DNA of 64,000 nucleotides, from NCBI RefSeq assembly GCF_036507355.1, contig NZ_AP027877.1. One strand, 5' to 3'. The stretch's first letter is position 1. Each line of letters opens with the position of its first letter. Under the pieces are notes generated by a model. The model did not search any database. It was given only the letters and a program-made list of their open reading frames with translations, and had not been told where the DNA came from. Shown here in pieces: positions 10,750 through 36,457 of the stretch. This DNA is from Escherichia coli. Its GTDB lineage: Bacteria > Pseudomonadota > Gammaproteobacteria > Enterobacterales > Enterobacteriaceae. A program made the position numbers and the translations under genes.

Positions 10750-10961
10750 GTCATGCGGGCGTCAGGCTGCCCTTTTTACAAAACCGCGATGCGCAGGCCG
10801 TTCAGCGCCAGCGCGTGGCCGATAACTTTCCCGGCAGCGATGCCTATTACAACTATGTGCTGACCCTGTTTGGACAAGGCTGGGATCAACACCGTTTCCG
10901 CTTCTCGACAAAAGGTGAGTTATTACCTGACTGGGGCCAGGAATGCGCAAATTCACACTAA
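10750..10961 (+). pseudogene. bcsZ: 3' remnant (about 70 codons) of endoglucanase bcsZ, lacking 5' portion and start
   Basis: Frame ending TAA 10959-10961 encodes ...[64 protein letters not shown], overlapping the bcsC start in the usual bcsZ-bcsC manner; nothing upstream except ldrD. Confidence 0.6.
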
Positions 10962-28202: not shown

Positions 28203-28805
28203 ATGCAAATAGTCATGTTTGACAGGCAGTCAATATTTATTCATGGAATGAAAATCAGTTTACAGCAGCGTATTCCAGGAGTGAGTATTCAGGGGGCCAG
28301 TCAGGCAGACGAGTTATGGCAAAAGCTGGAAAGTTACCCTGAAGCCTTAGTTATGCTCGATGGCGATCAGGATGGTGAGTTTTGCTACTGGCTGCTGCAA
28401 AAAACCGTGGTGCAATTTCCTGAGGTTAAGGTGTTAATTACGGCGACGGATTGCAATAAACGGTGGTTACAGGAAGTTATCCATTTTAATGTGCTGGCCA
28501 TTGTGCCTCGTGATTCAACCGTCGAGACATTTGCGTTGGCGGTAAATAGTGCGGCGATGGGGATGATGTTTCTGCCTGGAGACTGGCGGACGACGCCGGA
28601 AAAGGACATTAAAGATCTCAAATCGTTAAGCGCCCGCCAGCGGGAGATTTTAACCATGTTAGCGGCGGGCGAATCAAACAAGGAGATCGGCAGAGCGCTG
28701 AATATCAGTACCGGAACGGTAAAAGCGCATCTGGAATCCCTGTATCGCCGTCTGGAAGTGAAAAATCGCACCCAGGCGGCAATGATGTTAAATATCTCCT
28801 CCTGA
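28203..28805 (+). CDS. yhjB: LuxR/FixJ-family response-regulator-like protein
   Basis: 200 aa; C-terminal LuxR helix-turn-helix (EILTMLAAGESNKEIGRALNISTGTVKAHLESLYRRL); stop codon lies within the IS4 target duplication, ORF intact. Confidence 0.85.
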   Translation: MQIVMFDRQSIFIHGMKISLQQRIPGVSIQGASQADELWQKLESYPEALVMLDGDQDGEFCYWLLQKTVVQFPEVKVLITATDCNKRWLQEVIHFNVLAIVPRDSTVETFALAVNSAAMGMMFLPGDWRTTPEKDIKDLKSLSARQREILTMLAAGESNKEIGRALNISTGTVKAHLESLYRRLEVKNRTQAAMMLNISS

Positions 28806-28807
28806 AG
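28796..28807. repeat. IS4 target-site duplication, left copy (CTCCTCCTGAAG)
   Basis: Identical 12-mer at 30234..30245 directly flanks the other IS4 end. Confidence 0.85.
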
Positions 28808-30233
28808 TAATGCCGATCAGTTAAGGATCAGTTGACCGATCCAGTGGCTGTGTAAGAATCCGGAAACGCTCACTCGTTTCCGGATTTTTTTATGCACATT
28901 GGACAGGCTCTTGATCTGGTATCCCGTTACGATTCTCTGCGTAACCCACTGACTTCTCTGGGGGATTACCTCGACCCCGAACTCATCTCTCGTTGCCTTG
29001 CCGAATCAGGTACTGTAACGCTACGCAAGCGCCGTCTTCCCCTCGAAATGATGGTCTGGTGTATTGTTGGCATGGCGCTTGAGCGTAAAGAACCTCTTCA
29101 CCAGATTGTGAATCGCCTGGACATCATGCTGCCGGGCAATCGCCCCTTCGTTGCCCCCAGTGCTGTTATTCAGGCCCGCCAGCGCCTGGGAAGTGAGGCT
29201 GTCCGCCGCGTGTTCACGAAAACAGCGCAGCTCTGGCATAACGCCACGCCGCATCCGCACTGGTGCGGCCTGACCCTGCTGGCCATCGATGGTGTGTTCT
29301 GGCGCACACCGGATACACCAGAGAACGATGCAGCCTTCCCTCGCCAGACACATGCCGGGACCCCGGCGCTCTACCCGCAGGTCAAAATGGTCTGCCAGAT
29401 GGAACTGACCAGCCATCTGCTGACGGCTGCAGCCTTCGGCACGATGAAGAACAGCGAAAATGAGCTTGCTGAGCAACTTATAGAACAAACCGGCGATAAC
29501 ACTCTGACGTTAATGGATAAAGGTTATTACTCACTGGGATTGTTAAATGCCTGGAGCCTGGCGGGAGAACACCGCCACTGGATGATCCCTCTCAGAAAGG
29601 GAGCGCAATATGAAGAGATCAGAAAACTGGGTAAAGGCGATCATCTGGTGAAGCTGAAAACCAGCCCGCAGGCACGAAAAAAGTGGCCGGGACTGGGAAA
29701 TGAGGTGACAGCCCGCCTGCTGACCGTGACGCGCAAAGGAAAAGTCTGCCATCTGCTGACGTCGATGACGGACGCCATGCGCTTCCCCGGAGGAGAAATG
29801 GCGGATCTGTACAGTCATCGCTGGGAAATCGAACTGGGATACAGGGAGATAAAACAGACGATGCAACTGAGCAGGCTGACGCTGAGAAGTAAAAAGCCTG
29901 AGCTTGTGGAGCAAGAGCTGTGGGGTGTCTTACTGGCTTATAATCTGGTGAGATATCAGATGATTAAAATGGCGGAACATCTGAAAGGTTACTGGCCAAA
30001 TCAACTGAGCTTCTCAGAATCATGCGGAATGGTGATGAGAATGCTGATGATATTGCAGGGCGCTTCACCGGGACGTATACCGGAGCTGATGCGCGATCTT
30101 GCAAGTATGGGACAACTTGTGAAATTACCGACAAGAAGGGAAAGGGCCTTCCCGAGAGTGGTAAAGGAGAGGCCCTGGAAATACCCCACAGCCCCGAAAA
30201 AGAGCCAGTCAGTTGCTTAACTGACTGGCATTA
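28808..30233 (+). mobile_element. IS4 insertion sequence (1426 bp)
   Basis: Terminal inverted repeats TAATGCCGATCAGTTAAG (left) and TAATGCCAGTCAGTTAAG (right, reverse complement); exact length 1426 bp; single 442-aa transposase; 12-bp direct duplication. Confidence 0.92.
28892..30220 (+). CDS. insG: IS4 transposase
   Basis: 442 aa, [26 protein letters not shown]...; DDE transposase of the IS4 family. Confidence 0.92.
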
Positions 30234-30245
30234 CTCCTCCTGAAG
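30234..30245. repeat. IS4 target-site duplication, right copy (CTCCTCCTGAAG)
   Basis: Matches 28796..28807. Confidence 0.85.
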
Positions 30246-30293
30246 AGGATAATTTTACAGCCAGCAGGAAGTTAGCGGCTGGCTGTAAAAATA

Positions 30294-31973
<1,680 letters not shown>

Positions 31974-35420: not shown

Positions 35421-35759
35421 TTAATCGCAATAATATATTGGCTGTCTATTCATCGTGTTGATAAGATATATGTTATATGAATGTTTATTAAATGTAGCGA
35501 TTACCTTTAATGTCACGAAAGGGGATTATTTGCTTACTATTAATTTCCCTGCGTTCTTAAACACGTATTTGTATTATAAATCCAGTCATCCTGCCCGTAG
35601 AACATCACACATTATCATCCTGTTCTCCCGCTTCGTTTAAATTTATTTATCAATCAATTTGACTTAAGAGGGCGGCGTGCTACATTAATAAACAGTAATA
35701 TGTTTATGTAATATTAAGTCAACTATGCAATCACTACATGGGAAGGTAATGACTCCAAC

Positions 35760-36263
35760 TTATTGATAGTGTTTTATGTTCAGATAATGCCCGATGACTT
35801 TGTCATGCAGCTCCACCGATTTTGAGAACGACAGCGACTTCCGTCCCAGCCGTGCCAGGTGCTGCCTCAGATTCAGGTTATGCCGCTCAATTCGCTGCGT
35901 ATATCGCTTGCTGATTACGTGCAGCTTTCCCTTCAGGCGGGATTCATACAGCGGCCAGCCATCCGTCATCCATATCACCACGTCAAAGGGTGACAGCAGG
36001 CTCATAAGACGCCCCAGCGTCGCCATCGTGCGTTCACCGAATACGTGCGCAACAACCGTCTTCCGGAGCCTGTCATACGCGTAAAACAGCCAGCGCTGGC
36101 GCGATTTAGCCCCGACATAGCCCCACTGTTCGTCCATTTCCGCGCAGACGATGACGTCACTGCCCGGCTGTATGCGCGAGGTTACCGACTGCGGCCTGAG
36201 TTTTTTAAGTGACGTAAAATCGTGTTGAGGCCAATGCCCATAATGCGGGCTGTTGCCCGGCAT
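35760..36263 (-). CDS. insB: IS1 transposase InsB frame (made as InsAB' by -1 frameshift)
   Basis: 167 aa [36 protein letters not shown]...; A6C slippery motif upstream. Confidence 0.9.
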
Positions 36264-36457
36264 CCAACGCCATTCATGGCCATATCAATGATTTTCTGGT
36301 GCGTACCGGGTTGAGAAGCGGTGTAAGTGAACTGCAGTTGCCATGTTTTACGGCAGTGAGAGCAGAGATAGCGCTGATGTCCGGCGGTGCTTTTGCCGTT
36401 ACGCACCACCCCGTCAGTAGCTGAACAGGAGGGACAGCTGATAGAAACAGAAGCCAC
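36182..36457 (-). CDS. insA: IS1 InsA
   Basis: 91 aa [40 protein letters not shown]... Confidence 0.9.

Follow-up and report, generated by a model that had tools for sequence, protein, structure and literature searches.

A short spacer separates the convergent genes yhjB and treF of Escherichia coli, and in the 64,000-nucleotide stretch of contig NZ_AP027877.1 (assembly GCF_036507355.1) analysed here, hereafter the window, this spacer holds a copy of the insertion sequence IS4. The locus raises the question of what such an element does to two genes whose transcripts would both run into it, and whether its presence there is an accident of one strain or a property of the site.

The IS4 copy and its insertion point

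The features that define the insertion are as follows.

28203..28805, plus strand: yhjB, LuxR/GerE-type regulator, 200 aa, intact, with its TGA at 28803-28805 (ORF list; Pfam GerE, E = 3e-22)
28796..28807, no strand: left copy of the target-site duplication, CTCCTCCTGAAG (repeat search)
28808..28825, plus strand: left inverted repeat (IRL), TAATGCCGATCAGTTAAG, 18 bp, 16/18 matching the right one
28892..30220, plus strand: IS4 transposase ORF, 442 aa, uninterrupted (ORF list, Pfam)
30216..30233, plus strand: right inverted repeat (IRR), 18 bp, reverse complement TAATGCCAGTCAGTTAAG (repeat search)
30234..30245, no strand: right copy of the target-site duplication, CTCCTCCTGAAG (repeat search)
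30294..31943, minus strand: treF, cytoplasmic trehalase, 549 aa, intact (ORF list; Pfam Trehalase, 5e-171)

The element is complete and occupies 28808-30233 on the plus strand, as established from the window sequence and a repeat search. The original prediction described an IS4 of 1426 bp with imperfect 18-bp inverted repeats and a 12-bp duplication, and all of this is confirmed, with 16/18 positions matching between the repeats and 12/12 between the two copies of the target. The chance of a specified 12-bp match such as this perfect direct repeat, CTCCTCCTGAAG, is approximately 6e-8. The two alignments proposed with that prediction also bear it out. Against the K-12 copy (insG) the window IS4 differs at 14/1426 nt (1412/1426 identical, 99.0%) and its 442-aa transposase is intact. 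Deletion in silico of IS4 and one repeat copy leaves 813 bp that align without gaps to MG1655, where the site between yhjB (b3520) and treF (b3519) is empty, at 99.4% identity; the 112 bp flanking the junction in this reconstructed empty site are identical to MG1655.

IS4 had been placed exactly at the yhjB stop codon. The TGA does lie within the left copy of the duplicated target, but the element itself starts 2 nt after it. Similarly, the yhjB ORF is intact as claimed; however, it is so because the left junction falls 2 nt downstream of the TGA, and not because the TGA was duplicated. The YhjB and TreF proteins are each 100% identical to their K-12 counterparts.

The transposase contains the domains Nterm_IS4 (PF13006, 3e-33) and DDE_Tnp_1 (PF01609, 1e-31), both above their gathering cut-offs, and carries at aa 307-321 the YREK signature, Y-(2)-R-(3)-E-(6)-K, which is used as a criterion of the IS4 family (PMC2266710). 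The length of approximately 1426 bp, the single ORF without a frameshift, the imperfect 18-bp repeats beginning -AATR and the duplication of 12 bp, within a range of 10-13 bp, are those of the IS4 subgroup. The K-12 IS4 (MG1655 4502090-4503515) is likewise 1426 bp long, shares the 18-bp ends exactly, encodes a transposase of 442 aa and has both of the terminal hairpins described below. It differs from the window copy by four amino acids (N157T, G304A, R326L and T387I, relative to K-12) and in its chromosomal site, which is yjgZ/nanX rather than yhjB/treF.

The window allele is distinct from the K-12 type; a copy that adjoins ybaY in strain SWYHX138.261ft differs from the window copy by 2 nt. 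Shigella IS4 variants have been reported to be distinct from those in most E. coli (Hawkey et al., PMC7373316). The same transposase protein is encoded at least five times in one other genome and is multicopy in further genomes; since the ORF and both ends are also intact, the window copy is probably active. The exact transposase allele is rare, and the yhjB-treF locus is not among the places listed for it.

The surrounding DNA departs from MG1655 in other respects. Relative to that strain the window has a 10.6-kb deletion within the bcs cellulose genes and a deletion in the ars genes, and yhiS is free of the IS5 that it carries in MG1655. The 64 kb contain three IS elements; an IS1 is present in the 5′ end of gadX, and there is a 10.3-kb chu/shu-type haem uptake island, with a TonB-dependent receptor gene apparently interrupted by an IS3-family element. 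Of 5,426 complete E. coli genomes searched, none matches at even 99.5% identity, and the best, of O55:H7/O157:H7, stand at approximately 99.0%. A Shigella-like genome, suggested by the three IS elements and the gene losses, is plausible.

Occupation of the spacer and choice of target

A BLAST search with a segment of the window, together with a control query in which IS4 was reversed, covered the 5,426 complete genomes of E. coli. The site is occupied by IS4 in about 23/5,426 genomes (~0.4%). Twelve of these have the window orientation, 10 with both junctions and 2 rearranged, and 11 have the opposite orientation at the identical position. Junctions and duplication are identical in all occupied genomes of the window orientation, and one opposite-orientation genome that was read directly carries the same 12-bp duplication. 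In strains XH988 and GN02350 another locus stands in place of the yhjB side of IS4, which indicates a later rearrangement. Orientation bias at the site was considered and rejected: the initial matches were all in the same orientation because BLAST pieces had been joined only when on one strand, and it was the reversed query that found the opposite-orientation genomes. The TreF protein of the window is common, and among the matches listed for the identical protein the site was empty at all 10 places.

The IS4 copies occupying the site represent at least 4 alleles that differ by up to 15 nt: besides the K-12 type and two of its variants there are a third type, 12 nt distant from K-12, and the type seen in the window. 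Moreover, in three haplotype groups, separated from one another by at least 55 SNPs, occupied and empty strains have identical sequence over 3.8 kb of flank.

Group 1, 3.8-kb flanks: CFSAN061772 (occupied) identical to MG1655 (empty)
Group 2, 3.8-kb flanks: 14EC007 (occupied) identical to L022 (empty)
Group 3, 3.8-kb flanks: FDAARGOS_1290 and A3176 (occupied) identical to L029 and L031 (empty)

The presence of several alleles and of both orientations, with flanks shared by occupied and empty strains in divergent haplotype groups, points to independent insertions and to the yhjB-treF spacer as a recurrent IS4 hot spot. A single old insertion that has since been inherited or spread by recombination would account for the identical position and 12-bp duplication in all copies, and recombination is frequent in E. 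coli. Such an origin is nevertheless largely refuted by the occurrence of both orientations in 12 and 11 genomes, and it fits poorly with at least 4 alleles up to 15 nt apart at one site and with occupied and empty strains sharing 3.8-kb flanks in each of three groups at least 55 SNPs apart; we regard it as very improbable. An assembly artefact, in which a repeat has been misplaced, deserves still less credence. IS copies are a classic source of misassembly, but here the 12-bp duplication is perfect, the empty site reconstructs cleanly and the same architecture recurs in 21 independently assembled complete genomes, which together make an artefact highly improbable.

Given a recurrent landing site used in both orientations, the presence or absence of IS4 between yhjB and treF would be a poor marker of shared ancestry. 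Copies at this site can also seed rearrangements, as in the two strains that have another locus in place of the yhjB side.

The target is a small palindrome that is now whole on one side of the element only.

30235..30256, plus strand: small palindrome, the IS4 target, TCCTC ctgaa GAGGA then TAATTTT; terminator-like in the terminator scan; complete only on the right side of IS4

The window target, gttAAAtatCTCCTCCTGAAGaggataaTTTT, is a weak palindrome with a 5-bp stem (TCCTC/GAGGA) that overlaps the yhjB stop codon. Extraction of IS4 junctions from other loci gave 13 distinct targets, a small set that derives partly from BLAST hits extending into the flanks and is biased toward window-like sites. 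What these 13 have in common is a left arm rich in A, palindromic C...G positions and, on the right, a T-rich arm approximately 20-22 bp from the A-run; the duplications vary from 11 to 14 bp in length. For about 6 of the 13 reconstructed targets, folding predicts a hairpin that carries the duplicated bases at its loop or top, and several targets, for example those downstream of bamD, eno and ssb, are textbook A-tract/stem/T-tract terminators. The pattern agrees with the strongly conserved target arms described for the IS4 subgroup (PMC2266710). We propose that IS4 entered the spacer of approximately 50 bp between the convergent genes at a small AAA-palindrome-TTTT motif of the kind that it prefers, and that staggered cleavage 12 bp apart would have given rise to the 12-bp duplication. 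The terminator-like palindrome at the stop codon and the use of the site in two orientations go beyond the original prediction, as does a second inward-facing terminator at the right end of IS4.

Hairpins at the ends of IS4 and beside treF

Transcripts entering the spacer from either side meet the following structures.

28832..28859, plus strand: candidate transposase promoter, TTGACC, 16-nt spacer, TG-t-AAGAAT (consensus scan only)
28854..28891, plus strand: IS4 left-end intrinsic terminator, AAGAATCCGGAAACG / ctcact / CGTTTCCGGATTTTT + TT, ending at the transposase ATG (28892) (folding)
30196..30229, minus strand: IS4 right-end inward-facing terminator, GCCAGTCAGTT aagc AACTGACTGGC then TCTTTTT; hairpin and T-tract 30229-30204 (terminator scan)
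30249..30294, no strand: large palindrome that separates the IS4 target from the stop codon of treF, with its arms at 30249-30265 and at 30278-30294 (repeat search)

The hairpin and T-run noticed in the original prediction just before the transposase start are real, with a minimum free energy of -21.1 kcal/mol (z = -6.0). The left arm occupies 28854-28868, the right arm 28875-28889, and the last T of the run is at 28891, so that a 15-bp stem with core CCGGAAACG/CGTTTCCGG, a loop of 6 nt and a tract of 7 T make up the form of an intrinsic terminator. The K-12 allele folds at -18.4 kcal/mol. IS position 68 is C in the window IS4 and T in that of K-12; the C accounts for the stronger left hairpin of the window and also for the loss of the TTG that is RefSeq's alternative start (448 aa). 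The left hairpin is missing from the output of the terminator scan, probably as a result of pairing between the T-run and an upstream AAGAA.

In the K-12 IS4, an RNA 3′ terminus has been mapped on the minus strand at MG1655 4503427-4503435 (signal 1.0, p = 0, three replicates; PMC10687069 Supplementary Data 2) by a TRS analysis of E. coli RNAtag-seq. Coordinate mapping places this terminus at IS4 nt 81-89, that is, at 28888-28896 of the window. The suggestion that the hairpin might block read-through is thereby strengthened, since a terminus is present at the homologous position (PMC10687069), and the hairpin with its T-run very likely stops incoming transcription. The 3′ end seen in K-12 could itself stem from a promoter internal to IS4, by attenuation, and not from outside read-through. 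A candidate promoter for the transposase has a -10 hexamer that overlaps the start of the left hairpin arm; the scan found 3 promoter-like sites in this region, where chance alone would give 3.0. Transcription from the candidate would begin within the left hairpin arm, and the mRNA of IS4 itself might then escape termination.

At the right end, a Term-seq 3′ end at MG1655 4502127(+) (PMC7815308) and a TRS peak at 4502122-4502131 (PMC10687069) were recorded in K-12, and both map to approximately position 30196 of the window, where the inward-facing terminator ends.

The large palindrome beside treF forms a stable stem-loop (-23.3 kcal/mol on the plus strand and -20.8 kcal/mol on the minus strand) and is likewise absent from the output of the terminator scan. 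On neither strand is there a U-tract 3′ of the stem; the G+C core is followed instead by an A-run, in AAAAAUAUUAU on the plus strand and AAAAUUAUCCU on the minus strand, and the T-runs are on the 5′ side of the stem. Judged by this arrangement of letters, with an A-run in place of a U-tract on both strands, the large palindrome does not qualify as a canonical bidirectional intrinsic terminator. For the treF direction in K-12, a Rho-termination-region peak has been reported at MG1655 3671289(+) (Rho score 2.77, p = 9e-5; PMC7815308), which corresponds to position 30246 of the window, 3 nt beyond the palindrome. Read counts in untreated K-12 are similar upstream and downstream of this peak (41 and 44; PMC7815308), and Term-seq and TRS both place a 3′ end at approximately 3671519(+), 230 nt further on and inside antisense yhjB (PMC7815308; PMC10687069). 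From the similar counts and the distant 3′ end, treF transcription in K-12 appears to pass the palindrome into antisense yhjB. The view that IS4 had cut yhjB off from a terminator shared with treF is correct as to the physical separation of the palindrome from yhjB; however, the A-runs on both strands and the apparent read-through of treF in K-12 lend no support to the palindrome as such a terminator.

Searches of the same two K-12 supplements (PMC7815308, PMC10687069) returned no sense-strand 3′ end for yhjB. Thus, yhjB appears to be poorly expressed, and the effect of the insertion on it may be negligible.

Expected consequences of the insertion and comparison with known elements

If, as we infer, the terminators act in the window context as they do in K-12, the consequences for yhjB and treF would be as follows. 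With an inward-facing terminator at each end of IS4, entering transcripts should stop within approximately 40-90 nt. Those of yhjB would now end about 80-90 nt inside the element, at 28885-28896, and those treF transcripts that pass the large palindrome would end about 38 nt inside its right end, near 30196. The terminal hairpins would at the same time shield the transposase gene from outside transcription. Moreover, read-through from treF would likely no longer reach yhjB in antisense, because IS4 and its right-end terminator now stand in that path. The insertion probably harms neither gene and may be thought of as having uncoupled yhjB and treF instead.

We hold with considerable confidence that the window contains an intact, probably active IS4 in a hot-spot spacer, where it leaves its neighbours unchanged, and that it would be nearly neutral and would supply each of them with a new terminator. 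An effect on the regulation of yhjB is, in our estimation, unlikely. Such an effect could come about through loss of the native 3′ end, with changes in mRNA stability or level, or through a leaky left terminator that lets read-through from yhjB drive the transposase. The native 3′ region of yhjB, with the small palindrome followed by TAATTTT and the large palindrome, is indeed now 1.4 kb away, and the transposase ATG abuts the T-run, so that any read-through would carry the whole ORF. Against this, the left hairpin is strong and canonical (-21 kcal/mol, 7 U) and coincides with a K-12 3′ terminus of signal 1.0, and the presence of both orientations in healthy isolates suggests that there is no strong orientation-dependent effect.

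A nearly neutral insertion of this kind is the expected behaviour of a known element, namely a site-specific IS that has entered one of its preferred intergenic targets, and the significance of the locus itself is small, the neighbours being intact and the IS a textbook one. What is mildly new is only the synthesis of terminator-like targets, inward terminators at both ends and reuse of the site in two orientations, which could explain why such insertions are tolerated. More tentatively, and with rather less than even confidence, we suggest that IS4 is a "terminator-swapping" element, which preferentially cuts the loops of intergenic terminators of A-tract/hairpin/T-tract form, brings an inward-facing terminator with each end, so replaces the terminator that it splits, and insulates its transposase. 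If this is true, insertions would be near-neutral in either orientation, which would explain the repeated occupation of sites of the yhjB-treF type. Parts of this proposal are known or present in public data; the combined statement is absent from the literature searched. Terminators at both ends, backed by public 3′-end maps, could help to explain the harmless persistence of site-specific IS elements between genes.

No paper on IS4 at the yhjB-treF site was found in the literature searched, and the site is annotated without comment in RefSeq genomes. In Hawkey 2020 (PMC7373316) neither yhjB nor treF occurs in the main text; in the supplements treF occurs once, in a metabolic-model table, and yhjB never.

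The window target agrees with the published target specificity of IS4, a pseudo-palindrome with A-rich and T-rich arms some 20 bp apart, and differs from it in nothing essential. IS4 insertions in galT, in both orientations and with repeats of 11-13 bp, were reportedly described by Habermann in 1979 and Klaer in 1981, and Mayaux is said to have found IS4 in 1984 at the pheST attenuator, within AAA-N20-TTT; the pattern of the 13 targets agrees with this older rule. Entry into the centre of intergenic, hairpin-forming palindromes, mostly yielding harmless copies, is shared with IS1397, ISKpn1, ISRm22 and ISPpu9/10, which use REP sequences (PMC1525189). The targets of IS1397-type elements belong to a repeated REP family, whereas IS4, in the targets collected here, entered single hairpins of terminator-like form that have A and T arms.

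A second likeness concerns protection of the transposase gene. As in IS200, with its left-end terminator, and in IS10 and IS50, with their fold-back inhibition, a structure close to the transposase gene of IS4 would act on transcripts that enter from outside. IS200 has a left-end terminator, and the fold-back inhibition of IS10 and IS50 operates at translation and not at termination. A dedicated experiment on termination in IS4 was not found in the literature searched. The version found in IS4 is a hairpin with a U-run that ends at the start codon, and IS4 has terminators at both ends, each of them with support from K-12 3′-end maps.

The IS4 allele and other copies at the yhjB-treF site

The window allele of IS4 carries C at nucleotide 68 of the element (window 28875), whereas the K-12 allele carries T. 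In the left-end hairpin of IS4, this T-to-C change converts a G-U pair at the top into a G-C pair. It also removes the TTG from which RefSeq begins a 448-aa transposase, and the start that remains is the ATG of the 442-aa form.

Among other E. coli genomes occupied at this site, 14EC007 has an IS4 that has lost 1 bp (1425 bp in length) and carries a transposase with an annotated frameshift; at the hot spot shared with the window IS4, this copy is decaying. In two further genomes, XH988 and GN02350, the treF-side IS4 adjoins unrelated loci at its other end; one of these loci lies downstream of a pstS-like gene, the other downstream of zapB. An A-tract hairpin terminates each of these junctions, which are consistent with recombination between IS4 copies lying in different terminators.

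Within yhjB itself, two independent published data sets report an antisense 3′ end at MG1655 3671519(+), corresponding to window 28578 on the minus strand. No terminator-like structure is present at this position (-6.7 kcal/mol, 1-2 U), and the 3′ end apparently derives from treF read-through.

Insertions and deletions elsewhere in the window

The further features located in the window are as follows.

10766-10771: junction at which 10.6 kb of the MG1655 sequence (3689350-3699955) is cleanly deleted
35745-36512: IS1, 768 bp, interrupting gadX within its first codons (MQSLHGN precedes the insertion)
35736-35744 and 36513-36521: 9-bp duplication flanking IS1, ACATGGGAA
47063-57389: 10.3-kb island between yhiD and dctR, not in K-12
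54525-55343: rve integrase ORF of an IS3-family element

With the IS1 insertion, GadX, an acid-resistance regulator, is disrupted in this genome. The island is a chu/shu-type locus for haem uptake, encoding HemS/ChuS, a radical-SAM protein, a periplasmic binding protein, an ABC ATPase and a TonB-receptor plug domain; its receptor gene appears to be split by the IS3-family element near 54.1-55.4 kb.

The 10.6-kb deletion removes part of bcsC together with bcsZ, bcsB, bcsA, bcsQ, yhjR, bcsE, bcsF and bcsG, genes of cellulose synthesis, and its junction is without an IS. At window 61226-61229 and 59368-59372, taken together, arsR-arsB is mostly missing (MG1655 3648489-3650176) and yhiS is found without the IS5 that splits it in K-12.

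Relationship to complete E. coli genomes

Searching 5,426 complete E. coli genomes, we found the best matches in the O55:H7/O157:H7 lineage, at ~99.0%, with none higher. Three IS elements and several gene losses lie within these 64 kb. Taken together with the ceiling of ~99.0% on the matches, they suggest that the genome may be Shigella-like.
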